Below are positions 1 to 54,166 of a stretch of 60,000 nucleotides of DNA, piece by piece. Positions within the stretch are counted from its first letter, which is position 1. The number at the start of each line of letters is the position of its first letter. Made by a program: the position numbers and the translations under genes. This DNA comes from Botryllus schlosseri (lineage: Eukaryota): NCBI GenBank assembly GCA_051294905.1, contig CM119372.1:16680001-16740000 (forward strand). The letters are read 5' to 3'. The notes beneath the pieces were generated by a model. The model ran no database searches. It saw only the letters and a list, made by a program, of their open reading frames with translations, and was not told the origin of the DNA.

Positions 1-2162
1 CGGCTTTCGACGCAAACGGTCTACTCGAGATTGCATAATGTCACTACACGACGATATCTATAAATCATTATTCAATAAAAGATTCGTTTTAGCGGTGTTC
101 TTGGACTTTGAAAAGGCCTACGACATGGTTTGGCGAGACGGACTCGTACTTAAACTGCGGAAAATTGGCCTCACAGGAAACATAGTGCGGTGGGTGCATT
201 CATTCATTAATAACAGAACTTTTCAGGTTCGTCTCGGTAACACCTTATCAGACACGTTTGCGCTCGATAATGGTATTCCACAAGGAAGCGTGTTGTCTCC
301 GACTTTGTTTGCAATCATGATTAATGACCTCCCTCATGACCTAACGACTAACATCAATGTATTTGCAGATGACGTATGCATTTGGGATATTGGACTAAAC
401 GCTTGTGATATAGCCTCAAACGTGCAAGCCTCGCTCAACTCCATTCAGGAGTGGTGCCACCATTGGGGTTTCAAAATTAACGCTCAAAAGTCGGCCGGTG
501 TGTTGTTCACGAGAAAGCGCAAGTACCCTAACATCAATTTATTCATCGGACAGGTCCAATTGCGCTTAGAACGAGAGTTTAAATATTTAGGGATGACATT
601 TGATGCAAAACTCAACTACGGTCCGCATTCGCGTATGGTAGTCGCAAAGTGCTCAAGACGGCTCAATGTATTAAGGGCATTGGCTGGTACTACCTGGGGT
701 GCGTCTAAGTCTTGCCTTATGATCGTATACAAAACTTTGATAAGATCAGTGATGGAGTATGGTATTGAGGCGTATTTATTCTCACCAAAATACGTATTGA
801 AAGCGCTACAGTTGCTTCAGAACAAAGCACTGCGAATATGCAGTGGTGCAATGTCGAGTACGCCATCGTATGCATTACAGCACTCGTGTCATGAACTGCC
901 TATGCACTTCCGACATCTGCAAGCCTGCCTCGCCTATCGCTGCCACATTATGGCAATCGAAAACCACCCATGTACACCGCTAACAGAGCAGAGTTGGCAT
1001 GAAATCTTTCCAGATTCGTTTCGATTCGAAACTTTTAATATGCTCACAAGGTTGAATGAGGGCATAAAAGACTTGAAAATAGCAGAATATAACCGTTATC
1101 CCGACGCTCCACGGAATGAACAACCATGTTACACCGTCGATACGCACTTGCAATCGATCATATCCAACATACAGCACCCTGATATAATCGAGTTTGAATC
1201 CAACCACTATATTCTGTCTACATACGGTTCTTATATACAAATATTTACGGATGGATCGAAAACGAAATTTAGATGTGGGGCAGGTTTCCACGTAAAAGGA
1301 CTCGGAGTCGATTCCCGCATTGCCTTGGATGAAAATCTATCAGTTTTTTCAACAGAACTTATTGCGATCCTTAATAGCCTAAATTGGGCGCGTAGCGAGT
1401 GCCCAGAACGGTCAAACATAGCTATACTATCGGATAGTTTAAGTGCCATTATCGCTCTGCAATCTCGACAACGTGATAATCAGATCGTTTCCGATATAAT
1501 TATGCTTTGCAGGAGCCTTTCAGGCCGTTCAATACGGGTCACCTTTATCTGGATTCCAGGACACAGGGGCGTTGGTCGAAACGAAGAGGCAGATCGGCTA
1601 GCAAAATCCGCAGCATCAGACGAAAGTCCTGACATCGCTCAGACCCACAGTCTAACTCCAAAAGAATGCAAACCCATCGTTATTGACTATTGCTGGAATA
1701 AGTGGAAGTCTGAACTAGTCAACGAAGACTCGCAATACCAAGATCTGCTACGCAGTAATGCTGAATTTCGTGGAATTTCTTGTCTCTCACGTCGTGAGTC
1801 GTCGATCTTGATCCGACTCCAAACTGGTCATTGCGGGTTGAACGAACATCTGCATAGGATCGGATGCCATGAAAATGGATTATGTGAACTGTGCGCACAG
1901 CCTGAATCAGTGGAACATTTCCTGCTAAAATGTCCGAGATACTCAACTAATAGACAATATATCATCGAAGCTGCAAGGAACCATGGCGTTAACATCGTAT
2001 TATCAGAAATTCTTACCAGCCCTTTCACTGCAACGCCTATTATAGAATTTGCACTCCTTTCGAAACGAACAATTTAGAAGTCTTTTTTTAATCAAACTTT
2101 CGGCCTGGTGCACAAGGCCTCAGTAGCCGGGCACCAATAAAAACCCATACCAACCAACCAAC
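1..2162 (+). mobile_element. Non-LTR retrotransposon (I group LINE), 3' portion; runs off the left window edge
   Basis: Contains the RT-RNase H ORF, a short 3' UTR with a TGGTGC..GCACCA hairpin and AATAAA, and a (CCAA)n-like tail at ~2149-2162. Confidence 0.9.
38..2077 (+). CDS. LINE ORF2 C-terminal part: reverse transcriptase + RNase H + CCHC-type zinc knuckle
   Basis: Motifs FLDFEKAYD, GIPQGSVLSP, FADD, YLG; RNase H FTDGS...SDS...WIPGH.G..NE.AD..AK; C-terminal CELC...ESVEHFLLKC. The frame is open upstream of 38, so the listed start is not the true start. Confidence 0.95.
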   Translation: MSLHDDIYKSLFNKRFVLAVFLDFEKAYDMVWRDGLVLKLRKIGLTGNIVRWVHSFINNRTFQVRLGNTLSDTFALDNGIPQGSVLSPTLFAIMINDLPHDLTTNINVFADDVCIWDIGLNACDIASNVQASLNSIQEWCHHWGFKINAQKSAGVLFTRKRKYPNINLFIGQVQLRLEREFKYLGMTFDAKLNYGPHSRMVVAKCSRRLNVLRALAGTTWGASKSCLMIVYKTLIRSVMEYGIEAYLFSPKYVLKALQLLQNKALRICSGAMSSTPSYALQHSCHELPMHFRHLQACLAYRCHIMAIENHPCTPLTEQSWHEIFPDSFRFETFNMLTRLNEGIKDLKIAEYNRYPDAPRNEQPCYTVDTHLQSIISNIQHPDIIEFESNHYILSTYGSYIQIFTDGSKTKFRCGAGFHVKGLGVDSRIALDENLSVFSTELIAILNSLNWARSECPERSNIAILSDSLSAIIALQSRQRDNQIVSDIIMLCRSLSGRSIRVTFIWIPGHRGVGRNEEADRLAKSAASDESPDIAQTHSLTPKECKPIVIDYCWNKWKSELVNEDSQYQDLLRSNAEFRGISCLSRRESSILIRLQTGHCGLNEHLHRIGCHENGLCELCAQPESVEHFLLKCPRYSTNRQYIIEAARNHGVNIVLSEILTSPFTATPIIEFALLSKRTI

Positions 2163-31645: not shown

Positions 31646-34600
31646 TGCAAGGAAGTGTCGACACTATACACCTATACTCACACAGAACTTCGACGACTAT
31701 GGACGCTGGATAAAATAAAGCAAGGATTTAACGACTATCTTCTCACGTATAAAAGTGATTTTCTGTTATGGCACAGCCATCATCAATCACGATGACCACA
31801 CGAATTTTTTCATTGTGGATTTTATGTCAGCATTAATGCACGATCACCAATATAAATTGCATAGCCGTTCCATTTTACTGTTAACAGAGCAAGGTGAACT
31901 GATTTAGCATGCAGCCCTGTATGCAATTTTACAACACTGCCTTCATCACAATAAATTACATCTCAGCGAATGCGGGTTTACGGCATAATTTTTACGGCTG
32001 ATTTGTGACCCAGATGGCGGCGACGCCTATCACGCATTTGTTCAAAGGCCAACTTCTTCGTTTTGCTTCATTACGAGTGGATGAATTCAGCGCATGCATA
32101 AGACGATATCAGTAATGCGCCCCTGCGCATTAAAGGATTACATTCGCAAATGTCGTACGGTATTTCGCGAGATACATCTGCTGTATCAATATGCGTACTG
32201 GATGAATGCAATAAGCAACTGGTCAAGAACAATTTCTTTCGGCTCACAGTCATTTGTGATGCTATAGTTTCAGGATAAGGCGGAATTTCATGAGCTCTTT
32301 AGATGCGACGGAATTATCAGCATTAGTTTTTCACCTAATTCAATTCGTTAAGGGGAGCTGGCAATTCCTTATGTAATTACCTTAAACAACCAAACAACAC
32401 TTATATTTCCATTGATGCAATCGCCTCTTGAAACAGCTCATCGAAATTGACACGGGCATCGTGACTAATATCATACGACAGTATACCATGCTTCGTGTGC
32501 ATGCGAATTATTTATTTACTTTATGCCAATCCATATCATATAAGAGCAGGTGACCATGACCAATGACCATTGACGACACACATACCATTCATATTCACTT
32601 CGACCAGATGATCTATTCCATCTATATCAATCAGTTCAATACCTATATTCAAAAACTCCATGGTAATTATAATGACAATAAAGATGTAGAAGACAGTCAC
32701 TCCCCATCAGGTCACATATTAACAATTCTTGTGATACAAAGCGTATGTAACCTACAGAATCTCACGCGAAGGCTTAATGAAGGCTTAATAGCGTGCTGAA
32801 AAAACCTGCATTCAACCTAGAAAACGTTTGCTCCACTGAGACAAATATCTATAGTCCACTTAGTTATCCCATTAGGACTATAGTTGGTTCTGTTTCGCTG
32901 CTAATAAAAATTCAATGACCTCAATTACATCCAACAATCAATCAGTCCAGCCATGGCGGGAGGTCGATTACTTCATTTAAACTTGCGCAGCGGACTCGTA
33001 AACACAGCCCAGAGAGTGAGATGACGTCGATTTTGTTGCTACGGTTCTTGTTGCGATTGCTCCAATAGTTGGCTGCAATGAGGTTAATGAACGGAAACTG
33101 AGCTTTTGATAAAGCCCAGGAGTCGGCAACTTTGGAGCGGCATGTTCTTTTCTTCTCTGCCTATGTTTCTGTATAGTTTTGTCTCTCCGTTTTCTATACT
33201 CCTTTGCGATACACGGACCACCTTGAATATCAAACTTCGAGTAAAGATGCTTTTACCGCGATTCTATGCATATTTCTCTACAATTAACATTTTAACGAAC
33301 ACAATTCTATAAACAGGCCTTGAAGGAGTCTTCGGAATAGTCGACATATCCGATTGAACGTGACACAAACTGCCTATTCCGCTCATGACATTAATCGTTT
33401 TTCGTTTTAGTGACACAGTCAGTAAAGTACACTGTGTTATTTCTTTGTTGTCTGTGGCCTTTTCGCCTTTGTTGCTTGAGTCAAGCTAGTGCGGTGCAGA
33501 TATCATCCAGCAGCGGTCCCCCATTCCACCAATTCTCGTTCGCGGAATATACATCCGAACTGTTTTATGCGAGCTTGGAGCGCTAATCATAGCTTTCCAT
33601 GCCTATTGAATGCGTGGAAAATACGTAGCGGGGCTAGCAGCAACGATAAGTAATTTGTATCTGGCGAGTTTTGAATCCAATCATTTACTTCTAACGCGCA
33701 GTTATTGCAACCCTGATTTCATATTCCCCGACTTATTCTTGTTATTACCATCGTAGATAAGACTGTCAACGCGTGAGAAAAAATAATATTCTCGTTAGGC
33801 TTGTCATTTTCCTGGCATCATTTCAGATAAGGACAGCAGTCAGCGGAATAGCCTACTTATGCACAATATTTTATGCCCGTCCTGCATTAAGAATCACTTC
33901 ACCTGCCTTCTTTATTCAGACATTTCGCTCATATGCACTAAGTATGAGAGACTCCGACATATGCTTATTTCGGCGCTAAGCTGACTTATTGACCATTGGT
34001 TGCAGATATGCAACGGTGTAATCGGGGCCTACGCCAAGTTATCGTAGGCACGGTTGCAAGTATTAGGGAAATGTTCGACGAAGGCACAGAGTTGTGATCC
34101 ACGTACCTGTTTGCTACTAAGAATATTTTGCAGGCCGCATGATTTTGACAAAAATTATATGACCTTTTAATAAAGATATCGAACTGAAAATATCAAGCAA
34201 AGTTGACCTGTGGCGATTTGAGGTTCGGCCCATCGACGAGACCGTTGCGCCACTATGTAGAAATGCCGTACGATCATAAAAGCATAGATGTAACAAACTA
34301 TATGCATGTCAACGGCATAGTATAAGATCCGAAGGTCGATATCCCGGTACAGCGTCTTGGTATTTCTTGGTACATAAGTAAGTTAAGTTGTTCGCAACCA
34401 TTGACATTCTGCGGGCCCCTAGAGGTATAGTTAGTCACGTCTTGTGTCTCCTCACCGTGGCATCAATCCCCTTGTATAGCACATGTATCCATACGATAAC
34501 TCCTGCCGCTTCTAAAGTGCCCTATCATGTTAAGTTCAATCAAAGTGCCCTACAATGTTGTGGACACAAGCTAATCTCACAGCTCACTGCGATTGATCTA

Positions 34601-37879: not shown

Positions 37880-40800
37880 TCAAAATCGCACTGGACACTC
37901 ATATCTTTGCTCCATCGACATCGCAATTCTGTCCATCATCCTTTCGTATCTGGTAATTTTCTTGTTAATACATTCGAATTGATCAGAAATATCTGTTTTC
38001 ATATTTAGCAAGGACATCAAAGTTTCCTTGGTCTGAATAGGCAGGTCCATCGTCATCCATTCCAACCTTTCAAGACTGAAAGTCACGTCTTGAATTCGGC
38101 GGAATCGGCCATTTTCTTTCGTCACGTACACCAGCGTCGCAGTGATCAAAGTGTCGTTGCGGTATCGCATTCCCGCCCCACCATTTTTCTGGTACACAGA
38201 GAGGTTTCTGACTGGGATGAGTTTGATCTGATCGGGATTCGTTGTGCAGTTAGTTATGTTCGTGGAACTTTTATCTTCAGGTCGCGGATTCTTGCTATCG
38301 GACGTCTGGAAACGTAATTGATTTCATTCGTATCGTATATTTATCTATCATATACCCACTTCTGGCATCTGCGAATGCGGTAACCCAGTAGGTTTCGCCG
38401 GAGATACTTTGCGTTTTCCTCTCTGAAATGGAATTTGCTAAAATTCATCAACACATTGGCGCCTAACTATAATCAAATTAGGAAAGGAGAGAGAATAATA
38501 ACTTCACTCGAATGTTACGTCACAGGTACTGCGGATCGGCGTAATGCCTCGAAGAGAATCACTTGTCCTGTTTGCCATGCTCCTACAACAGTGGCCCTTC
38601 ACCTTTCTAAGGGTTACCATATTTTAAGAACTGGAAAAGAGGACACTTAAATTTCCAAAATCGACTCCCCGTAGACCCGCTTTAACGTCAGTTTTTTGTC
38701 ATCCTTCCCGTAGAGATCCGTTTTTCCCCGCCATTTATGGCGTTTATTTGGTTGTGTCTGTGCAATCGTCTGTCCGTCAAAGCTATAAATAGGTACGAAT
38801 TGCCAAAAATGAGTTCATTTACGATTTCTTGATAAAGGAGGACTAATGGTAACCCTATCTTTTTTCTGACGGACCAATACGATAATCTGCAATCCTTCGG
38901 CGAAACCCAAATTTTCGAGTCACAAAAACAAAGGAACTGCCGCATAAAGCATCTGTACTATAGCAGACTGATGCACAAAATGAGATGTGCATCAAAAACA
39001 GTATTAAAAGTAACAAACCATTAAAACATATCTTCACACAAAAGAAAAGACCAATGAATATAACTGCAAATCCGCATGGCTTCTGCTATATGAGTCGGGC
39101 GCGTGCCTTGATCTCCACCGAAACCTCAGCGAAACCTCTATGGCTCAGCGAAACCATAGAGATCATATGAATCCCGGTTAAGAACCGCTGCCCTAGAATA
39201 TGGAACCTCCTACCGCAATAGTAAAACTAACACTGGTAGAATAATTATTATTCACTGATAGCTTAAATCATCCGCAGATCGTTACTCCAATTAAGTTACC
39301 CTAAACTTGCGAAACAAAATTTCGAAAAAGTTGTCTGTCCTAGCTGGCCCGTGTTCTCCCTTCTTCTGTTCCGGGATGCGGTGGTTTTCGACCTAGACAG
39401 AATGTAAGAGAAGTTTAATATTTTAGTTATAATCAATGTGTGGACCTATCTGAGAAAAAGGACGCAGACGGCTGGTAGGCAAAGAATTTGTTCGTTATGC
39501 ACGGATCATTTTGTTATTAGCACTCCATACTGTACGTATACCCAAGGAGCATGCGGCTCATCCTTATTTCTGAATAAGTATTCATTGACGCTCTAATATA
39601 GGTGAAAACTCTGCATGCTGTTGAGAAGTAGCCAATTGTATTCTAGGTATTCTAATCTTGGAATCTGTCACAAGAATCATACGCGCCCAATCTGCCGATT
39701 TCATCACCCTATAGAAATACCTTTTTCGTGAGGTCGTAAGTCATCACAAATGTGCGAAAGAACATTTTTTGAACATCTAAGCAGAGTTTCATCGATTCGA
39801 AGGCATCGGCGTGAGAGATTTTTTCCAGAGTGGCGTAAGTCAGTGCTTTCAACGTGCTTTCACTGAAAACCGGGGCATTGATGTTCTTGATTGTCCAGAA
39901 GGCGATACCAAAGCTGTCCGATGGAGCTGAAAATACAGCAGAAAAACTGATGTATGTAAAAGAATATGGTTTCAAGCCATAGAACGATCTGGTATTATTG
40001 CTGCCATAATGTATCACCGTTATAAATTCGTCGCATTGTGAGCGTTAGTCGGGCTATTAGCCCCTGCTGTCATATTCGTTACTAATACCCCCTTTTCGCC
40101 ACTCATTGTGCGAGGTCAAGCATATGTGGGCCAGGAATTACGATACAGACACACAAGAACCAGAACGCCAATTTATTTGAATTCATAATATAAGATTAGT
40201 AACTTGGCTGTTCCGACGTTTGCCTGCGTTTGCCGGTTAATACAGGGGTGGCCAACCTTTTCGGCCAAGGAGCGACATTAGATTTATGGATCATTGCGCG
40301 GGCCACTTGAATGTTCATGACATTTTTTTAGTCTTCCGATGGGAGCGAACCGGATTAGGTAACGGCGAAAACAATACTTATAATAATACGCATCAAAACC
40401 AATGATAATTATGAAATGAATAGTCAGTGTGCATTGTGCAACCATGTCCTAGTCGGGCACAGCGCGAAAATTTTTCATACATAATGAATAAATTCGGGCA
40501 TAATAATGTTACTTGCATATATTGCGGGTCGCCTCTGCAGATATCGCTGGGCTCCTTTGGCAAGGACAGGATTATTCGGTGTTTGGACTTATAAATATCG
40601 AAGATTTTGGATAACATGCGAGATATTGTACTATACTATATGATCATAAACGACTATAGCCACGAAAAATGTGGCTGGCACCTGGCTACGCCAAGGCATC
40701 GGAACTGATATTTTAGTCATCAAAATCCCAAATTCCGCGATCAAGCTTATCAAATTTTGGTTATTTGGTTTAGGTGAATTATTTTTTGATAATATACCTA

Positions 40801-41094
40801 ATTTCGAGGATTACCTCGCGGGCCATGGGTTAGCCGCCCCTGAGCTAATACTATCCTGACAGAATAGCTACATCTACTGTCGTGAACTAAACGAGTGAAC
40901 ATTACAAATCATAAAATAGTGATAACTGAGCATGAGCTTGAGCAATCATGTTACAGTCCTATTTCATTCCCACTAATATGGACCACGTATCATATAGGGA
41001 ACTAGCTGTATCGGAATTAATATTGCCTTGGCGGAGAGAGAGAGAGAAAAAGAGAGAGACAGGGAGACAGAGAGAAAGAAAGAGAGAGAAAGAA

Positions 41095-41145
<51 letters not shown>

Positions 41146-41160
41146 AAGAGAGAGAGAGAA

Positions 41161-41191
<31 letters not shown>

Positions 41192-41234
41192 AAGAGAGAG
41201 GAAGAAAGAGAGAAAGAGAGAGAGAGAGAAAGAA

Positions 41235-41273
<39 letters not shown>

Positions 41274-44200
41274 TAGCCTTGTAATATCGAAAAACTGTTG
41301 TGGCGATTAGGCAGCGTATGTTGTATCGTTCATAAAACAGCGAATTTCCATACCAAGAACTCCAACTACTTGACCGCTTTGAATAACTTCCAATGATCCA
41401 GAAATGATAAAATACAAGTCAGTAACTTCCTCCCCCTTTTTGATCAAAACACTGCCGGGCGTAGCATAAATTCTTTCCAATTTTGAGGAGATGCGCCTCT
41501 GACTGGCTGCGGTCAGTCGCTGAAAGGTGGTTTGACTGTTCATCACGTTCCTGTGCAGCTGGACACGAGTTTCCGCTCGCAGGTGTTCCGGCAAGAAATC
41601 CAAAACCTTGTGGAAAGTAAAATGTCTGTTATTCTCATTTCTGTGTCGCTTGTCAGTGTGAGATATTTTAATCAACATGAGATTGACAATAACGAAAGAT
41701 AAAATTGATGGTTTCTGTGCCTTGATATTATTAGCGAGGGACATTATACGTGATATGATAAGACTACGACGCAGTTGGTGAATTTGATTTATGTGTGCGG
41801 TGACAAGCACTACTATGAGATATGGCACTATCATTTGAGGAGAAGACAAACAAACAATGAAATATTTTGTTGCCAACAACTCTGTACGGAATATTTCGCA
41901 CACATATGATTCGGTGGTAGTTTAGGACCGAACGCCGCATTTATGTACCCAGACAAGGTCGTAGAATCTCCGTTTTATTGCTCCAATGTCAATGTAAAAG
42001 TAACTTGACACTTTTACTACTTTTTTCTATTTACTGTTCTCCCTGTCGCCTTGCTGTAAATCAGCTCGTGACATAAGATTTTCGAAGGGAACGACTCAGA
42101 GTCTGGATTGTATACTTAGCTTCGGGTTTCAATTCTATTGATGACAACATATCATTGTCCTTCCCTGCGTATGCAACAGCATTACGTTTTCTTGCAATTT
42201 ATGCGTATTCAATAGCATTACGTTTTCTTGCAATTTATGAAATGAAATCTGCATTGGGACGAACTATTCTGACGCGAACTTAGGATTATAGAGCTTAATT
42301 CAAAATTGATTACGCGATTGATCAACGAAGTCTTAGCGACTTATGCACGGGATATGCTACCTTATCGGGACTGATTCCTTTCGTACTAGCATTTGCGAAG
42401 AAGACGTGCTCCTCCAAAGAATCTTTCACATTTCTAGGAAGTTCGTGAGACCCGTTGAAGTCTCGTACCAGCCTCATGGCAATATCAAGCTCGTTTTCTC
42501 CGGCGCACAATATGGTCTGTACTACATTCGTAACATTCGCGAGAATCGTAGCGTAGATAATTCCTTAAAATACGAATGCATATCATATTGTGTAGACTAC
42601 GAGGTATATCAAACAGTTGCAACAGAAAAGATGACCAGAAATTTCCGTCATTTTTAAGGTGCCATGACCAGGAGCAAAGAGCTGAGGCTAATCAAAGAAC
42701 GGGATTTTGTCGATGCTGATTATCCGCTACGCAGCGCAGTTTACTCGGAACATTGACATGCCAACATTTTGAAAGCAGGCATATTGAAATCTCGTACTAC
42801 TTCTTAACGATGTCTCGATTCTTCTCGATATTATGAAGCTAAATACAGAATGATCACCTCCAAACATCAGCATTATGATGCAAAATATTTGTTCATTGTG
42901 GGTTTCTCCAGAGATATTTCCAAATCCTTGCGATACAATCGCTGTCAGCGCGAAATACAGACATGCGATGTAACACGACGGAATCCCAGGTCCACCTAGG
43001 AGCTGATCTAGAGGGATGAAAAGCAGGTCTATAAAACATTGCAATAAGTCGTTTTCATATTAGCCTCTTCGGCATTACTCTAATTGCAATGGCATATGGA
43101 ATACAGAATCAATTAATCATCAGCTATGAATAAAGAACAAAAATGCTCCACAATCATAACATATCTTCGGGAAAAACAACAAGTAGCTTCGACTACTCCA
43201 AAATCAAATCTAAAAATTACGTTTTTCGGACCTCTTATTTGTGACTGTACTACGATTGAACAATGATCATACTGTTTCTACATCTTACATATATTCTGCC
43301 GGACAACAAAGTAGTTCTAATGTCACGGGCATATACTGCCATTACGCAGATCGCAATAAGTGCAATATATTATAAGACACTATGTATAAGAGTCTGTTGC
43401 CAAAACAAGTTCGTCACGATGTGAATTAGAGAGTACCTGTGACATTGTCGAAGTAAAACTCCTCGCGTTGTGATTCTCCAAGACGGAGTAACCAGTTCTT
43501 CGGAGGATTGGGCGTTCGCATGGCTGGCGGTACGGCAGTTTCAGGTTTAGTGGTAAGGCTATCAATCGTTGCGCCACGTTTAGCAGCGTGAATCAGATAA
43601 CCATCCCCGAATAGAAAAATTCTATTTTCAACGGACTCGTGCATATATTGTGAAGTAACCGTGGGTTTATCACTTGCCACCGTCACACCGATGCTCTGCC
43701 GCTGATTTTGTAGGAAAAAAGCGGCCTCCGTCACCGCCAAGGAATACCAAGCGCACCCGATCCAATGACAAAGTAGCAGTATGAGAATCGTCTGGAAAAT
43801 TTGGAACTCAGCAGGTGGGAAGTGCAGAAAGTTGAGAAAGTTGCAGTTAATTTTAACAAAAGTTGCAGCAGAAGTCGCATTCACGCACAAGTTCTATTAA
43901 AATTAAAGAGTTATAAAGTTATGCGAGATATGGGGATACTCGAACTGTTCCGTCGTATAATCCAGCAGTGTAAGATTTTCAGGGTGTCTGCTTGTTCCGT
44001 TTATTTCATCGTAATTCAATCGATCATTCAGTCATCATTTTTATGTTTAGGTTTGAAACCTACATACATGACAGTATTTCGTTGTCAGCTCCAGCGGAGC
44101 TGTCAAATTCGGTACTTTCCCATTTCACGGACGGCCTGGCGAGACCGACCGCCGAAAATTATATTTTTTTGCCGGTACGCAGCATAAAAACGATAATCCA

Positions 44201-47200
44201 TCCCTCCCTTATCCCCAAAACAAGTCAAATAACACACCCCAAACCCCATAGGTCTGCATTCTGCAAACTTGATCCAAGGCATTGCAGAAAACATACAGTT
44301 GTTACTAAGCTATCTCAACAAAACTTGACCTCGAAAGACTAGTCACTAGCCGTTTCCGTTTTTGCGGGCTTGGCCAAGAGGCAAGTCATTCTTCCACTTC
44401 AAATTTAGTTCGGTCTCTGTCGTGCTCGACTGGAGTTGTTCAACTTCTAGCTTGTATGCCAACTGTTGCGTCATAGATAAGATTGACTTGCAGCTAATCC
44501 ATCACGTAGCTCTTTGTTATTCAAATCAAAGAGAATAGAACCAATTTTCGAGCATGTTTTTTAAACCACTCTCTTACATTTGCACAATACTTGATAAAGG
44601 TTGCATGAAAAATATTTTTAAAAAAATGCAACTTGCAAAGACAATGCCTTGCATTATACAATGAGAAATTATTGTCAAGAAAAACATCTTCTGTTACTCA
44701 GCAGGTGTAACTATTATCAGTTGATCACGCATTTTAGTGTATGGCCCAGTAGCGCTGGTTGATATTGCCTTGATTCAAGTCTTACCAGTACTAAGATGGA
44801 GGGATAGGTTCTGGAGAAGTAGCGATCCAGATCCCGTGCTATCCGTAGCAGGCGGAGGAGACGAAAAGTTTTCAATGCTCCCAGTAATCTCGTGTTCGTC
44901 TACAACGAGAAGTATCTCAAAGTCCCGCATAGAAAAGCACGCTGAACCTGCTCAAATTCAAGTGTACCCTTTTTCACAGCAGAAGGTCTGCCAGAGTGAG
45001 AGCCTTTATTTCAATGCAACTTGGACATTATAGCCATTTAGTTGTAGGCTACCTATATGTCAGTTACATTCGCACAGCCACAATTAAATATGGTTGGTTA
45101 TACTTGCAGCTTGCACTTATCATTTCCAAGTCACAATACTTTGGAGATGTAGGCCTATAGATACATATATTGCAAGTCTTAATTGTTTTATGACCTGCAC
45201 CCTTTATGAGTAACTGGGGCAGGTTCCTTTTGAACTTGTGAATTTCTTTTATAGTGGAATGAACTTTAGTGCGGATCCTTCGCATGTGAAATCGCCAATG
45301 TCGCTGTTGTAGGTTGTAGCACTACCAAGGAAATTACTTGGAAATTACGTTAGTTAGTTAGTTGACATGAATTATGGCAAGATGCCATGCAGTCTCCTGC
45401 ATTCATGGATATGCAGCCACACATTTTAAATCAGACAAGTTATTGTCTGCCATTCAACATCATAAACTAACCGCAAAAAGCATTTACATCAGTAGCTTCG
45501 GAGCAAACATTTACTACTGGTAAAGTAGCCTAGTTTTGTACGTACCAGTGTAACTGAGTAAGAGGTCGGTTTACAATATTTTGAGATCCGGAAAAGAGGC
45601 CGCTTTTAGAAGTGACAAAAGATATCATAGTGGGCGAGAAAACGTGTAATATATAAACTTATACGTGAAATATTTTTGGGTTGACCAAGAAAAACCGCTC
45701 CCACGTAAAGTCTGTTGGCGGTGACGAAATGTTCCGCCTCCCGTCATCGCCGTGCAGATACAGATTTCGCGTCATTTAGGGCCTTTTTTAGTTATTCATG
45801 TACCATCCCCTACCTCTCACAGCTTTAAAGGAGGACGAATTGCCAAAAACGAGGACCGATCCTCCTTATGAATGACGTATGGAAACCCTAAAGAACACCG
45901 GCGCTTATTAATTAGTTTGACTATATTTGCAATAAGTATGACATCTGTAGCATGGGTTCTTAACGAGGGTTATACGAAGCAAATATTTCGCAAACCAACA
46001 TATATTGTGATAATTTATGGGGCAGATTTATACAACTCATTTTTTTGGGCCTTGCGCGATTTCACATCAATGGATTTCCCGGGTTTCATATATGTGTACC
46101 ATCCACAGCTGAACACGGCGGAAGATGTAAATTGCAGTGCCTTGCATTCTCGAAGTCACCACCTCCATCAGCTCTGCCGGAAACTCTAATCCAGTGGACT
46201 GGGAGAGCATAAAAATTAAATGTAATTTATGCAAGTACCAATACTATTAACGAAACGCTAGGGAAATTTCATGCTTTGACCGGGTAAAAGGCAAGAAATA
46301 GGCGGTAGGCTCATGATAAATAAATATGTCATCCGTTCAAGAATCGTGTAATTATTGTATATTACTCAATACGGAAAGAGTGTGCTTGTTTGTGAGTAAT
46401 GTTTATAAAGGGTAATTATGAAATTGCCTTTACCGGAATTTGTGTTAAAAACCCCATGGAGTATGGAGGCCCCAGACCAGCTTTCGGTAGCGGCCTGATA
46501 AAGTGCTGCTGCGATTATGGGCACTGTCACTGGGCAGGGGGTACGAGAAATTGTAATGAAAGCTCCGCTGGTAAGAGCGCTAAAAAGGTTAAGAAACACT
46601 GCCTAATAGTATATAGCCTACATAGATAAACATCCGTACATGCACACTTCCTGCAAGCCATAATATCGCGTCGTACGGAATGCAGGTCAAAACGTCCAGC
46701 AAAAACCACGACTTGATGTATCGAGTTCGGATTTCCCAAAAGTCTGTAATGATTTCACCTGGAAAGGAGGATATACTATACATTATTACCATGAATGGTA
46801 TAGGTGACGTGCCACGACTAGGTTTAGAAGACTTTAATGATTCGCCGGGCGGCTCGTAGGTAAAATAAATGGGGATGCTGTGGGATGATCGTTACTGAAG
46901 TCAATGCACCTCAGTTTATCTACTGTCCTTACGTAGCTTTCTATGCCGTGTTTCCTATTCTAGTATCATCGTCAGCAATGTTACGGTTCGGTTTGTTAGC
47001 AATCAGTTCAATACACCACAAAAATTGCGATACAATGAAAAGATAGGAAGATGTCGAAACGGCTTGGAGCATAGTCTTCGAAATCAGACCCCCACCTTGG
47101 CCTAGGCGATGTAAAGAGGAGGCATGCACAGTTGCACACTGAATGAAAAGTAAAAGAAGATAATATAAAAAAGCAAGCGACAAAAAGAGGTGGCATGTCA

Positions 47201-50200
47201 CAGAAGGCGAGATCGAAAGGTCAGGTCGTGGTCGTCTGGCAATCTTTAGGATGGACTAGTATTCATTTAGTGCAGCGAACGCGGGGTTATTCAACATTTC
47301 CGGGGAGGATTTACCACGATGCAGTGTTGGGATGACGACACAGACTGAAAATGTTTGACGACTTGAATCGACTCGAACTCGGAAGAGATGACTTTATTCG
47401 GGTTACGTTGAAAAGTTTTGCGCTAGAATTGAAAATTTTTGGAACTGCGCGATCTGATAAGAGGGTATTGGATTTAGCCTATGTAATGTCGGTCCTAACC
47501 CCAACCCCAAGTTTTACCCACATGCTCAAGTGTCGCATGCTATTATGTCCACGGACCGACAGTGGGATATCATTGGCTATTCGTTGTAATGGAAAAGTCG
47601 CAGATACCGGTAACGTCAAACTTATGACATGACAGAGGCTCAGTAAAGTAACAGTATAATTTGTCGCCAGTTGCCTGCGAGGCCGTAGCAGTTACAGATT
47701 GTGCTCTCTGTATCACCGCTGTAGTTTGCCTGGATGTTTAGTCGTCTTTAATTGTTTGTTTATTGAATTGTGAACGACGTAAAGCCATTTTGAAACAGGA
47801 CCGGTAATTTGTACCGAACAAAGATATATATTGGTACCGGTAGTGAAGACAGGTGATGGTGTCAGAGCGAAATTCACACCATTTCTATGTCTGTGTGTGG
47901 GCATATCCTGTCTGGCTTGGTGTTGTTTTAACCTATTCCTTGGTTGGAAACCTAGAAAGCAGATACTCTGGATAAACGTATGTCGGAACTCAAACGCAGA
48001 TTTCTGGTAGTATAGGCTACATCTCAATGCACGTCGGATACCACATCGGCGACCTGATTATAGGCAGGAGTAGCATATTTTGTTTATTTTACACTTTGTT
48101 GGGCTCTTGGGCTATTGCGGTTATTGTGTATGTATGCATGATGAAGGAAGGGATGATCATGATATGGTTCCCTTCCCAGAAGTTTCAACTTGGAAAATCA
48201 AGCAGCCCCTGTATTAATTTCAAAGCTTATGCTTGAGGACCAATGAAAGATTGAAACGAAACGAATCCCATCGATTATCTTTGAATACTCTTAGATTTAT
48301 ATAAAAAATAATAATCTAGCTACTTGAATGGTCGATTCCCAAGAAAGTATTCAATATAGATTGGAAGGAGCTTCTTGGAGTACAGAACTTCAATATAAAA
48401 TTGAATAGTATATTCATATTGAAATGAACCCGAATATTTTCGGCTGACACTCGTCTGGGGTAATCGTCAGCAACTAGTAAAGAATTGGAAAGAACATTGT
48501 ACATCAACAATCGTATCACAAAATATGACGTCACCAGCATGGAATGAAATCTCAAATAAGAGAGCGTTCAATATACTATTTTAAGGTGGTACACGAACTC
48601 CTATACATAGACAAAGCTTGGGTTGATGTATTTTGATAAAAATCGACTCCAAGGCACACAGATGAAGGTGTGAGCGGCCCCTTGCGATGACGTGAAATCT
48701 GTTGTCTCGATAATTTTTTGCACAAGCTGGATTATCCAACAGATTACATAAATCAATTTCCGTGGCTTACTTCATAATGAAAAACTGCTTGTACACTAGA
48801 TGGCGCTATTACACGGGTAAAATTTATTCCGTTCTGCGATAAGCACCATTGAATTCGTTTAATTCATAAGAATAATTATAACAATGTGGTTATTTTTGGA
48901 CTTTCGATACATTCACCTACAAGAGCTGAAATATCACACGAGAAATGTCATTTATACTGTATGCAATTGCTGTCTCTCTACAGGTCTCATGAGCGCAATT
49001 GTAAAGAGTAGGTATAACTATTATATGCGGGCATTTTCCAATCTAAACCTATCACCGTGTCGCATAACATCGTTTATTATTCGCCGCCTTGACTGTGGAA
49101 TTTTCTCACTGCTTCACAAGAGTATGCATATTCCGAATAATCAAACCTATGATTCAAACCTATGGATGTTGCGATCCTTATTGTAGTAAATGCTCTGACA
49201 GTCTATACAAGTCTTCAGACTTATTACCCCATAACCTGCACACTGTATTACCGGCTTGAATCCAAATTACCGTAACATCTCATGTATTCTGACCAAAATG
49301 TTGATAAGTTGCAGGCGACCCGTGTATATTGGCATTTTCACCCGAGGCTCGGTCATAACGTGGTATACCGCTACCGCACCGCTCTGATTGTGTTGGCTGA
49401 CAATCGCAATACCAGCGATTCCGAGCACATTCTTCGTTGTACCCTTAAATATGTTGTATTCTGAGAACCATCGGCGGGGTGAAAATGGTGGTCTACTTTT
49501 GTCCTCTTCTTACATCAGGTATATATGGTCTGGCAGCAAAATATAATGACAGCTACAATAATCGAAAACTTCACTAAATCCACACATGTCACTCCTTGCC
49601 AAGAATAATTCGCCGGTTTCATTCGGCCAGTCACAAACCAAATATGTATTATAGGGAAACACGTAGTAAGCTTACCGGATAAGCTACTATATCCTGAATT
49701 ATATTTCTTGTATCAATTTATTCAATTTGTAGTTATTAAATATAGAACAGTAATTACGAAATGTACGCATACAATACAAATCTATCAAAACGGTGACGCT
49801 CCTGGTAACGAAATTGTTCCGTGCTAAATGTTAGTAGAAAAGGAATCATGAAATGATATCTTCCAGACGTAAAATGACTACTAAAACAACAACACTAGGG
49901 TGCGAATAATAATGCATTGCCACGACATATCCGTGAGTTACAGAATAATCGTTGCAAAAAAGACCTATACTTGATTACCTCTTATCGTCATAGTAACATT
50001 GTTGCCCTGTACCCTCGCCCAGACATTGATTCTTTGATTTGCTTTTATTCTTAAACTTTCTGTCTTTTTAAAAAAATAATTACACCCATTCGTTACAGTC
50101 AGATTGTATGGAGACAGTGTACTTATTGGATGCGGGCGTGGTCTGACTAGTTAAACTCCAGGATCGTATCGATCTTCCCCATCCTATGCCAAATACTGTG

Positions 50201-51700
50201 GTACGTGTTTTCTATGTCGTCATTTTGCCGTCTGTTTGTTTTGTATTTTAGTTGGATAAAAATTAAAGACACTCTCTCTCCCTCTCTTTCTCTCTCTCTA
50301 GGTGTAAGATGTTGGTGGAATCCAAATTATTGATTAGGATGGAGTTCCTAGACGAGCAAACGTCTTGTGAAGTACTCTAGAAGTGTAAGTAAGGTATTCG
50401 GCAAGCTATTGATGAACAAAGTGACCCCACACTTTGAAGCGGATGCGTAGTTAATAATTTTTCCGATATTACTTCACTGATAAACACTCCGCGCTATCAA
50501 GAGGGTTTAGCGTTTTTTCGAGAGGTACAAAATTCTACTAGGGAATTTCCAAAGCATTTACCCTGTCTAAACCATTTCTAATGTTGCATTTCTCACTAAT
50601 CAAACTACAAGCTTCCGAAGACAAACATTCACGTTCCGGACTTTTAATCGCTGAAACCTCGAAGTATATGTTTTTACGTAGAATTTTAAATGGCAATAAA
50701 TTTTTCCGAATTTTCACGCTCATCGAATTCTTATCTCATGACATTATTACGAAGATATGCGATTACGTGGGCCAACTTGATTGCGGAAACTGTTTTTCTC
50801 ATAACCTGTTCGAAAGTTCTCCGAAATAAGCACCGCTATTTCAATGGGTCATCAATTCTACCTGAAACCATACCTCTTGATCCCGCTCTCGTGGCGTAGA
50901 AATTAAGGATAACGTCACCCAGGAAGAATATGTCGATCAAAGAGTCCGCCAGTATCCACCAGCCACTAAAATAAAATAATAATTTTAAAATCATGCATCT
51001 TTCGTGAGATTATTTCCTGCAAAACGGCATCTTTTCACGTATGTGATGATATACCATCAAACGATTAGAATCGTGCTTTGAATGCTGATATTTCCACTGA
51101 TACTTATCCTCTAAATAACTGCAAAACTTTATATTTTTATCGCTAAACTTTAGATTCGTGAAGGGTTGTGAAAGTATACACTTAGCTGGGTGTGTTCAGG
51201 GCTGAAACAGATACTCCTATTTACTGATTCGAAACCCGAGATTCAGATCGTCATCGCAATTATATAACATTATACATTGATTTGATCACGGAATGAATTT
51301 TTCTGACGCGATCTGAATGGAAGACAACGTACTTTTCGTCGACCATGTCGAATGCTGTCACCAAAGGTACAGCAAAAGCTGTGTAGTACGTTAACGCCAA
51401 TATGAACCAATCCCAATGTGCTTTGAATTTGCCATAGTGAAGAATCAGGTTAGCAATACGCCTTGGCAGTTCTTGTCTTTTCTTGTGCACAACTCCATCT
51501 GTGCGTGAATCTCTCCCTGTGCTTGGAAAACCAACAGTTAGAGTACTACGATAATTCGCCAATCTTAAACTCGCACGTGGTTATCAGCTAGATATGTTGC
51601 TTGACATCATCGTACGGGGCGATTTTGAAGATTTCGACTCACTTAAATTTTTGTAGGTTGGATCTGTATTCCTGTCTTCGCATGTGGTCTTCGAGCTCAT
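37880..51700 (-). CDS. KCNH/ether-a-go-go-family voltage-gated channel with cyclic-nucleotide-binding homology domain (>=13 exons, ~771 aa); 5' end uncertain
   Basis: Exons 51700-51643 (tentative), 51516-51333 (ILHYGKFKAHWDWFIL, S1), 50965-50874 (S2), 46758-46640 (YIKSWFLLD, S3), 44899-44786 (LKTFRLLRLLRIAR, S4), 43791-43437 (S5/turret), 43007-42858 (GGP..LYF..SQGFGN, pore/S6), 42563-42361, 41606-41354, 39926-39721 (LKALTY..TYDL), 39392-39300, 38422-38360 and 38305-37880. All are GT-AG and phase-consistent. Confidence 0.9.
38609..38857. mobile_element. MITE family B, short copy in a KCNH intron
   Basis: agggttaccata...aatggtaacccta; another right end (tatggaaacccta) lies at ~45878-45890. Confidence 0.7.
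40243..40842. mobile_element. Charlie-like hAT MITE in a KCNH intron
   Basis: TIR caggggtggccaacc/ggttagccgcccctg; degenerate TSD GGTTAATA/AGCTAATA. Confidence 0.75.
41033..41272 (+). repeat. (GA)n purine-rich microsatellite, ~240 bp
   Basis: Near-continuous AG/AAAG repeats with only two C residues. Confidence 0.97.
43818..44695. repeat. Interspersed repeat homologous to 55903-56712
   Basis: Colinear blocks, e.g. CTCGAA.TGTTCCGT, TTTCG.TGTCAGCTCC, CTGCAAACTTGA.CCAAGGCATTGCAG and AAATCAAAGAGAA; flanked by a 12-bp direct repeat ACTCAGCAGGTG. Confidence 0.75.
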
Positions 51701-52172
51701 TTTCTAGCATATGAGGTTCCGTGACAACGAACAACGAACAACCTCGAATACATTGCTCAAATCCGATGGTATCGTTGAAGCTGCTGCTCCTGAGCATATG
51801 GCGTATACTTTTATGTAATGAATTGCATCTACTTTTAATAGCTAACACCACTATTAAGGATGCTTTACGCGTTATAATCTTCCCTTTGTGAGATTGGAAT
51901 GGAGCTAACCATAGTGGTGAATAGCACAACCTTGGATCATTGCGCTTAATCACACAACTGCGATAAATGTATGTTGTCGGTCAATATTGACTAAATTACC
52001 CGAATACAAAAGTGTTCTCTAAATCCGAGGCCGGCAATCCATGGCTCATTCATACCTAATGCTGCTGTTCTTCGTAGCTTAGACGCGGCTGTTCGTAGCT
52101 TTCAATAATTCAATTAGTAATTGTCATAATATATAATTTAGCTTTAGTGATTTTTCAGTAACACTATAGTTT

Positions 52173-52830
52173 CGCCGACCGCGAAGCAACATCTGCGGCT
52201 TTGTCTGGCCCCAATCGTCAGGTCCCTGAGGTGACCATCGGAGAAGCTAAGTCACTTGTCCGCCAATATTCGCGAACTCTCTGGCAGGAACTGTACGCAT
52301 GTGAAGATAAAGAGATGCATTATAAGCGTTTCCATAGTTGCATTTCAATTAAATTACCGTCAATGCATGCATGTCGGCAATTCGAGGTCATCATGTTCCG
52401 TCTGCGCTCCGGCCATTGTAGGCTTAACGCCCATTCGTTCAAAATAGGATGTTCAGATACTCCGCTATGTCTCCATTGTAATATCGCCGAAACCGTCGAC
52501 CATTTTCTACTGAACTGTGCAAGATATGATTTTCAAAGGTCCTTTCTCATTGAGTCATGCCGTCATCAGGACATCCCATTCACGACTTATAACCTCTTGG
52601 TCCAGCCCGAGCTATTAACCCCTGTGGCTGAATTCGTGCTATCATGTCGTAGAATCCTTTAAGTTTTGAGTCGTATATAGCCGAGGTTGAATTACATTGC
52701 AAGGGTACTTATACCAGGAGGTAATTTCAGACCGTGGTGCACCAGACCCTTAAGGGAGATAAGCGCCACTAACATTTTTAACTATATTAATAATAATAAT
52801 AATAATAATAATAAGCATAATAATAATAAG
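52173..52830 (+). mobile_element. 5'-truncated I group LINE (3' end of ORF2 plus (TAA)n tail)
   Basis: ORF 52201-52662 (RLRSGHCRLNAH...CLHC...ETVDHFLLNC) is homologous to the C-terminus of the 38-2077 ORF; 3' hairpin followed by (TAA)n; left TSD TAACACTATAGTTT at 52159-52172. Confidence 0.85.
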
Positions 52831-52839
52831 CATTCTCTT

Positions 52840-53421
52840 TTCGTCAAACTAAAAAAGAAAAGAGAATGCTTATTCATTGAACTGGCTGTCCCAGCTGATC
52901 ACAACCTACTGCAAAAAGAATCAGAAAAATACTCCAAATACGCAGACCTCAAAATGGAATGTGAGAAAATGTGGCGATGCAAAATAAACATTGTACCGAT
53001 AGTCATTGGTGCTACAGGGGTCGTGAGCAAAAAACTCATGAGACATATCCAACAAATTCCGGGTAACGTTCGATTCGACATGATCCAAAAGATCACATTA
53101 TTGGGCACTGTGCACATTCTTCGGAAGGCCTTGAATGCACCACTGGACTAAAATTACACTTGTGAATCACAGCATAATTTCTGTAATTTCGATTCTTCAT
53201 CTTCAATCATCTCTACCTCTGCTCTGTAACCCTTGCCAATTCTTCATCTGCTGCAATTCTGTAATCTGACTTCTCCGTGTATTGCATAGGAATAACAATT
53301 TGAATGTATTGCTGAAATTTTAAAAATTTACTCCAATCTCGCCATTTTCGTTTGGGGGCAGGTTGCTCCCCGGATTATGTGTGTATCTACCAGTTTTACT
53401 GTGAATAAAGAATATAATAAT
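52840..53421 (+). mobile_element. R4/Dong-like RLE non-LTR retrotransposon 3' fragment, copy 1
   Basis: Encodes ...CLFIELAVP...K.SKYADL...IVPIVIGATG; 3' UTR with AATAAA and a TAA tail; near-identical to copy 2. Confidence 0.85.
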
Positions 53422-54166
53422 ACATTCATCTTGAATTATGCAAACATTTTAACATCACCACTTCGACAAAAAATTGGTACGATTACAGCCCAGCACCAGT
53501 GACAGAAAACGAACAAGTAAAAATTCTGTGGGATGTACCAGTTATAACTGACCGCGAAATCAGGAGCAACCGCCCGGATATAATCGTCAAACTAAAAAAG
53601 AAAAGAGAATGCTTATTCATTGAACTGGCTGTCCCAGCTGATCACAACCTACTGCAAAAAGAATCAGAAAAACACTCCAAATACGCAGACCTCAAAATGG
53701 AATGTGAGAAAATGTGGCGATGCAAAATAAACATTGTACCGATAGTCATTGGTGCTACAGGGGTCGTGAGCAAAAAACTCATGAGACATATCCAACAAAT
53801 TCCGGGTAACGTTCGATTCGACATGATCCAAAAGATCACATTATTGGGCACTGTGCACATTCTTCGGAAGGCCCTGAATGCACCACTGGACTAAAATTAC
53901 GCTTGTGAATCACAGCATAATTTCTGTAATTTCGATTCTTCATCTTCAATCATCTCTACCTCTGCTCTGTAACCCTTGCCAATTCTTCATCTGCTGCAAT
54001 TCTTTAATCTGACTTCTCCGTGTATTGCATAGGAATAACAATTTGAATGTATTTCTGAAATTTTAAAAATTTACTCCAATCTCGCCATTTTCCTTTGGGG
54101 GCAGGTTGCTACCCGGATTATGTGTGTATCTACCAGTTTTACTGTGAATAAAGAATATAATAATAA
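53422..54166 (+). mobile_element. R4/Dong-like RLE non-LTR retrotransposon 3' fragment, copy 2
   Basis: KILWDVPVITDREIRSNRPDIIV...IELAVP...KYADL is a restriction-like endonuclease (PD..E..K) motif; ends in (TAA)n, followed by the right TSD at 54167-54180. Confidence 0.88.

Follow-up and report, generated by a model that had tools for sequence, protein, structure and literature searches.

A clade of EAG-derived KCNH genes with an altered selectivity filter in Botryllus schlosseri and other ascidians

The selectivity filter of K+ channels is lined by backbone carbonyls, and the side chain of its valine packs behind the filter. A role of this valine in folding and gating is described in PMC7872957, and the effects of its replacement have been reported for several channels. 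For instance, Kv2.1 V378A does not discriminate among monovalent cations and retains its voltage gating, and Shaker V443A is cited second-hand as similar (PMC4621747). In hERG, V625A is reported to disturb the selectivity and to attenuate the inactivation (PMC4959829, PMC4564290), and both the T623A and the V625A channels conduct (PMC4564290). A table of long-QT variants includes T623I, V625A and V625E (PMC7212895). A mutant study with Gln at the filter valine position was not found in the literature search.

Among natural channels, the sea-urchin CNGK has a Thr at this site and displays Na+ block and rectification, its class being described as K+-selective (PMC4749565). According to PMC9614928, the K+ selectivity varies among channels that have a G-Y/F-G motif, being strong in some and weak in HCN for reasons that are still open, and residues outside the filter shape it as well.

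As for the KCNH family, the accessible text of a recent work (bioRxiv 10.1101/2025.09.21.677649) lists Eag duplications for chelicerates, hydrozoans and some protostomes, with tunicates absent from that list, and reports PAS loss in some Erg channels. A KCNH phylogeny of 2026 includes three Ciona proteins, and the one with the altered filter treated here is not among them (PMC13398235). A description of an ascidian EAG clade with an odd filter was not found in the literature searched, which covered few of the subscription papers.

The gene described here is located on the minus strand of a 60,000-nucleotide stretch of the B. schlosseri genome (the window; contig CM119372.1, positions 16,680,001 to 16,740,000). 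Its pore exon (150 nt, flanked by AG/GT splice ends) is translated as LYFALTAIVSQGFGNIS and the filter reads V-S-Q-G-F-G, with S-Q-G-F-G at 42933-42919 (-). The alignment with hERG residues 602-648 is free of gaps and places Gln opposite V625 and Val opposite T623. Splice ends, translation and alignment thus bear out the preliminary description, in which a KCNH pore exon with this filter and the position of its S-Q-G-F-G had been proposed. The same description regarded the valine place as almost invariably V or I. This holds for KCNH, where V or I occupies the place of the Gln in 262 of 266 G[FY]GN motifs and the remaining four all belong to orthologues of the Botryllus gene; it does not hold for CNGK-like four-repeat proteins, which have T, A or L. 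The motifs come from 269 retrieved proteins (150 from a first and 119 from a second homologue search), the four-repeat CNGK-like ones left out.

A sequencing error as the origin of the Gln was ruled out, since Styela also has Gln at this site. The region 42500-43521 is covered by a contig of a different sample (X5, depth 76), which differs at 15 places; the 40 of 569 difference rows listed include no entry for the Gln codon (42928-42930). By comparison of the predicted proteins, the filter variant is real and lineage-wide in ascidians.

The phmmer search retrieved one odd-filter protein with a similar S4, a Ciona model named "KCNH1-like" (P0015). When this protein was used as the query, three more strong matches from Ciona, Clavelina lepadiformis and Styela clava were obtained, followed by vertebrate KCNH1/5 (best 120 of 1056). 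The orthologues are XP_039267571 (Styela clava), XP_076822434.1 (Clavelina lepadiformis) and XP_018669472.2 and XP_078491576.1 (Ciona), in records named just "KCNH1/5-like", "eag-like" or "uncharacterized". Their filters read I-S-Q-G-F-G in Styela and I-S-A-G-F-G in Clavelina and both Ciona models. Among the best 150 of 589 and the best 120 of 1056 matches, orthologues with the odd filter come from ascidians only. Further orthologues were found neither with the pore exon against longer proteins (none of five candidates) nor with Styela residues 310-470 against shorter proteins (none of 120), nor among 413 pattern matches in metagenome contigs.

In the maximum-likelihood tree (26 rows and 601 columns; HCN, P0020 and P0079 left out), the five odd-filter sequences form one clade (100/100), Botryllus and Styela group together (100/100), and all of them fall within EAG (100/100). 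The branching inside the clade matches the expected ascidian groups; its position within EAG is not resolved by this KCNH tree. When the tree is rooted on Botryllus HCN, the clade again groups with EAG (95/88). ERG orthology was rejected by the AU test (p-AU 1.7e-5), and an origin specifically from ascidian EAG was neither supported nor rejected (p-AU 0.27). The gene is also no HCN, as its filter is not C-I-G-Y-G and the clade joins EAG on the HCN-rooted tree. Consequently, the divergent KCNH paralogue suggested earlier, for which alignment and phylogeny had been named as the check, was supported and can be narrowed to an EAG-derived clade present in four ascidian genera or lineages. On this tree, the Botryllus branch measures 1.29 and that of Styela 0.43, a threefold difference in length.

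Elsewhere in the Botryllus genome (495.5 Mb), EAG (C12) and ELK (C6) are each represented by a canonical gene that has PAS exons and the filter T-S-V-G-F-G, and HCN genes lie on C9 and C13. The ELK gene (L015-L017) has a long branch of 2.2 and a divergent S4 with a canonical filter. An unnamed ELK-like fragment (P0079) has the filter T-R-V-G-F-G, with Arg at the inner Ser/Thr site, which may be an error. A multi-exon CNBD channel with the filter T-S-T-G-Y-G-D (L004; C2, 19,234,811-19,237,927) is, from its sequence, likely a CNGK repeat. Three ERG queries against the whole genome, with the best candidates scored, recovered only the EAG, ELK, HCN, CNGK-like and odd-filter loci and one weak match with stops on C7. 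ERG may therefore be missing from the Botryllus genome or from the assembly. A separate "Kcnh6" model exists in Ciona (PMC13398235, Table S1).

The closest relatives in structure are the EAG/Kv10 channels (KCNH1 and KCNH5, Ciona XP_026694540.1 and the C12 gene), with which the clade has S1-S6, the C-linker and the CNBHD in common; in the membrane core, the identity to rat KCNH1 and the C12 gene amounts to 40-46%. In detail, the clade retains the six-helix core, the charged S4 (in Botryllus the K-R-R-R-R noted before is confirmed in exon 5), the acidic residues of S2/S3, G-F-G-N, the C-linker and the CNBHD. Pfam Ion_trans exceeds its cut-off in all five orthologue models, and cNMP_binding is matched in four of them, the fifth being without an exon. 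On the other hand, the filter of EAG, T-S-[VI]-G-F-G, is replaced by [IV]-S-[AQ]-G-F-G, and the clade differs from EAG in having no detectable PAS domain, a longer S5-pore loop and a clade-wide change of Lys to Asp at or after the end of S4.

A PAS exon was found neither in the window nor in the 30 kb upstream, with queries that do find the PAS exons of EAG and ELK. A PAS domain was likewise absent from all five orthologue models; the Ciona canonical EAG model also has no match, and such models can be short. The K+ signature T-[ST]-[VI]-G-F-G is absent here (V-S-Q) and in the orthologues (I-S-Q or I-S-A). From the S5 CHW motif to GGP, there are 115 residues in Botryllus and 109-145 in the orthologues versus 49-52 in two canonical EAGs. 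The preliminary description had not covered the change of Thr to Val/Ile, the absence of PAS, the enlarged loop and the Ala form of Ciona and Clavelina. Judging from these sequences, the clade is an EAG (Kv10) paralogue by descent and, being without PAS and the K+ signature, two defining features of Kv10, it is not classed here as a Kv10 K+ channel.

The identity from the pore helix to S6 is 62% with Styela and 51-56% with Clavelina and Ciona, and G-F-G-N and the inner Ser are unchanged in all five sequences, which argues for a pore that is maintained, not decayed. With Styela, the membrane core shows 60-66% identity, the C-linker 39% and the CNBHD 47%; between two ascidian EAGs the identity is 69-93%. 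On these comparisons the clade is constrained yet fast-evolving, with the Botryllus branch as the fastest.

The features of the locus are collected in table 1. The open model comprises 12 exons and 784 codons, with GT-AG in 11 of 11 introns and zero internal stops, and ten consecutive exons (51797-39721) provide 612 stop-free codons. Of the earlier claim of no stops across 13 exons, the first part stands; 12 exons could be built, exons 1 and 11 among them being putative, and a thirteenth was not confirmed. Exon 1 bears a faint likeness by eye to the Styela N-terminus. Exon 9 matches Pfam cNMP_binding at E 2.7e-5, which is under the curated cut-off. Exon 11 matches the EAG tail motif weakly (rank 89 of 67,661); another EAG-tail-like 11-mer, at 32204, is enclosed by stops and was regarded as a chance match. 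By inspection, the introns in S5, S6, the C-linker and the CNBHD coincide with those of the canonical EAG gene on C12, whereas those of S1-S2 differ.

Table 1. Exons and other features of the odd-filter gene (positions in the window)
Feature	Position	Strand	Basis or remark
Exon 1 (putative)	51643..51797	(-)	ATG at 51797, short N-terminus without PAS, GTGAGT donor, frame fits exon 2
Exon 2, S1	51333..51521	(-)	tblastn with Styela P0157, E 3e-13; splice sites
Exon 3, S2, both acidic residues present	50874..50965	(-)	Styela tblastn, alignment
Exon 4, S3	46640..46758	(-)	Styela tblastn, alignment
Exon 5, S4 K-R-R-R-R; Lys-to-Asp at S4 end clade-wide	44786..44899	(-)	Styela tblastn
Exon 6, S5 and enlarged extracellular S5-pore loop	43437..43791	(-)	Loop length count
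Exon 7, pore helix, filter, first half of S6	42858..43007	(-)	66% identity to Styela, 50 residues
Val codon	42936-42934	(-)	hERG T623 position; Ile in every orthologue
Gln codon CAA	42930-42928	(-)	hERG V625 position; Gln in Styela too
Exon 8, S6 end and C-linker	42361..42563	(-)	Styela tblastn, alignment
Exon 9, C-linker end and first CNBHD half	41354..41606	(-)	Styela E 3e-23
Exon 10, second CNBHD half	39721..39926	(-)	Styela tblastn; donor at intron position of canonical EAG
Orthologue-like post-CNBHD segment	39687..39726	(-)	One base out of frame, across A5 run
Exon 11 (putative), phase 0-0	39300..39392	(-)	Frame kept
Last exon, conserved C-terminal domain with a long helix at its end	37880..38305	(-)	tblastn E 2e-7 (Styela), 3e-8 (Clavelina)

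Several repeated elements accompany the gene. Intron 3 contains very high-copy repeats at 47000-47250 and 48380-48750 with many opposite-strand joints, which are probably foldback or MITE elements, and a (CT)n/(GA)n microsatellite of ~250 bases (window 41020-41270) lies just inside intron 9. At window 2-2074 (+), an open frame of 690 codons with reverse transcriptase and RNase H represents a non-LTR retroelement. A fragment similar to the tail of this element is located at 52162-52659, and two near-identical tandem copies of an endonuclease-like retroelement tail, with a unit of ~740 bases, are found at 52681-53148 and 53421-53891 (+).

The region directly after the CNBHD deserves separate mention. 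The 13 residues directly behind the CNBHD of Styela, Clavelina and Ciona have their best match in a shifted frame starting at 39725, which ranks first of 61,045 open 13-mers on both strands of the window; without the first two residues, it ranks second of 67,661 11-mers. The segment (39726-39687) occurs in one copy in the Botryllus genome. The splice at 39721 preserves the frame and omits this orthologue-like segment, and since that donor and an intron of canonical EAG share their position, splicing may bypass the segment. An assembly error, a true frameshift (possibly with intron loss) and an exon part skipped by splicing are the possible sources of the shift. Hence the earlier statements that the gene is intact and has no frameshift remain valid for the core from S1 to the CNBHD, which the shifted segment does not affect, and become doubtful at 39726-39715, immediately after it.

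On these grounds, the Botryllus copy could be in decay, or cut short behind the CNBHD, in a clade that is functional elsewhere. The shifted segment and the long terminal branch agree with such a decay, as does the contig of the other sample, in which two of the three exonic differences (among the 40 of 569 rows listed) replace residues of the variable loop. On the contrary, the joins are free of stops over ten exons and 612 codons and over all twelve and 784, the identity to Styela persists across the membrane core, the last exon is conserved and has an open frame, the donor at 39721 is placed as in canonical EAG, and a run of five A is a typical site of assembly error. A decaying copy is, on balance, very unlikely.

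With regard to expression, a bulk RNA run (X22; 12,895,792 reads, ~6% of one run) gave a depth of 0 over 41290-43575, a range from which a rare or tissue-bound transcript could escape; the missing pore-exon reads would again fit a decaying copy. In another run, guessed to be RNA (X7), a piece extends over a boundary of intron and exon, and joints between exons are absent from the 15 of 527 rows listed. The several isoform models of Styela and Clavelina suggest RNA support in those species.

The reading favoured here, which is nearly as probable as its contrary, is that the Botryllus gene and its orthologues encode a cation channel that is activated by depolarisation and selects K+ poorly. A duplicate of EAG (Kv10) that arose early in ascidians would have lost the PAS domain and enlarged its outer loop; as canonical EAG and ELK genes are found elsewhere in the genome, the duplicate may have been freed. 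At the base of the filter two residues would have been replaced, Thr by Ile/Val and Val by Ala/Gln. Four subunits, putatively of the same kind, would assemble into a channel whose opening on depolarisation relies on the intact S4. The G-F-G carbonyls would stay, the bracing side chain behind the filter would be lost, and Na+ would be expected to pass alongside K+, producing a depolarising current. By analogy with the known mutants, such a voltage-gated channel may excite cells rather than calm them.

The positions changed in Kv2.1 V378A, Shaker V443A and hERG V625A are one and the same, and Ala is the natural state there in Ciona and Clavelina, which bear the equivalents of T623I and V625A together. 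The mutants are single disease or engineered changes, whereas the ascidian change is fixed lineage-wide and accompanied by a second one adjacent to it. From Kv2.1 and Shaker, the reduced K+ selectivity proposed at the outset is plausible. The altered inactivation proposed with it appears weak, because the parent is EAG and the link to hERG inactivation is an analogy.

The other changes of the clade could also compensate for those in the filter, and a depolarisation-activated channel that is still K+-selective, altered only in rectification, Na+ block or filter gating, would be distinctly unlikely and yet consistent with several facts. G-F-G-N and the inner Ser are conserved in the five sequences, the hERG T623A and V625A channels conduct (PMC4564290), and CNGK tolerates Thr (PMC4749565), with T, A or L in the CNGK-like matches. 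Opposed to this, Ala, the state of Ciona and Clavelina, abolishes the selectivity in Kv2.1 and Shaker (PMC4621747), no other KCNH motif among the 266 lacks V/I, and the CNGK repeats are asymmetric, with Thr in three of four, where a homotetramer would have four altered subunits. In fact, CNGK/tetraKCNG resembles the clade in its natural polar Thr at the same filter place (PMC4749565) and differs from it in its four-repeat chain, its G-Y/F-G-D motif, its gating by ligand or pH and its description as K+-selective.

HCN is like the clade in belonging to the CNBD superfamily, in its G-Y/F-G motif, in its weak K+ selectivity (PMC9614928) and, as seen in the Botryllus HCN on C9, in a hydrophobic residue at the T623 place. 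It is unlike the clade in having Ile at the valine place, in opening on hyperpolarisation and in constituting a separate family.

A poorly selective channel has to be weighed against the part of the protein beyond the pore. The C-linker identity is 31-39% within the clade versus 93% between two ascidian EAGs, and 25% to EAG; this divergence, as it appears in the alignments, would be expected of a regulatory subunit and counts against the favoured reading, as do the depth of 0 in the bulk RNA run, the long Botryllus branch and the possible frameshift after the CNBHD. Furthermore, since the filter site matters for folding and its variants are listed for long-QT, folding or trafficking of a homomer may fail. 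A modifier ("silent") subunit, without activity of its own and co-assembling with canonical EAG so as to shift its gating, suppress it or lower its selectivity, is rather unlikely, and several observations are in its favour. Canonical EAG is present as a partner in the same genome, the C-linker and CNBHD diverge fast, S6 differs close to the gate (Leu instead of Phe at hERG 656 in the five sequences, Ala instead of Gly at 657 in Botryllus alone), and a C-terminal helix possibly lies at the place of the EAG assembly coil. In Kv families, silent subunits arose repeatedly and assembly takes place within subfamilies; those named in the accessible text of the same source are, however, all of the Shaker family (bioRxiv 10.1101/2025.09.21.677649).

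The C-terminal domain is barely alignable to that of EAG, which argues for separate assembly. It gave a weak profile match to the EAG tail (E 0.009, probability 4.5%) and no BLASTP match to rat KCNH1, so that the helix of the last exon is, at most, possibly the EAG assembly coil. A monomer model of the Styela protein (pLDDT 62.8, pTM 0.39, TM-score 0.31) includes a long C-terminal helix at 780-825 and has Eag1 as its best fold match (5k7l, E 1.4e-39); it is too coarse to inform on the geometry of the filter.

The enlarged S5-pore loop bears on another explanation, namely that the central pore is non-conducting and the function lies in the voltage sensor or in the large outer loop, the protein being a sensor, a scaffold or an ion path through S1-S4. 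The loop is twice as long as that of EAG and contains, in all four species, one or two N-glycosylation sequons; the base of the filter carries two changes, and zebrafish HCNL1 is a precedent for a non-conducting pore. All S4 charges are present, however, and thus leave no gap for a gating-pore current, and G-F-G-N and the pore helix are conserved. This explanation is the least probable of those considered.

If the poorly selective channel is retained as the preferred reading, the clade would represent, tentatively and with a somewhat better chance of failing than of holding, a fourth kind of KCNH channel. Such a channel would be EAG-derived, PAS-less, opened by depolarisation and permeable to Na+ and K+, that is, a depolarisation-gated counterpart of HCN, with changes at the sites of human disease variants (hERG T623I and V625A; Kv2.1 V378A) fixed before the main ascidian groups split.

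The clade provides naturally matched pairs, a single animal having both a canonical EAG and a relative with Ala/Gln for the bracing valine. With two filter sites fixed, it would be an experiment of nature on the basis of selectivity in a G-Y/F-G filter. If the channel is still selective, its compensating residues would show how a change that causes human channel disease is tolerated, and if it is a modifier, silent subunits would be extended to the EAG family. If it is non-selective, a lineage of K+ channels would have turned excitatory in the closest invertebrate relatives of vertebrates.
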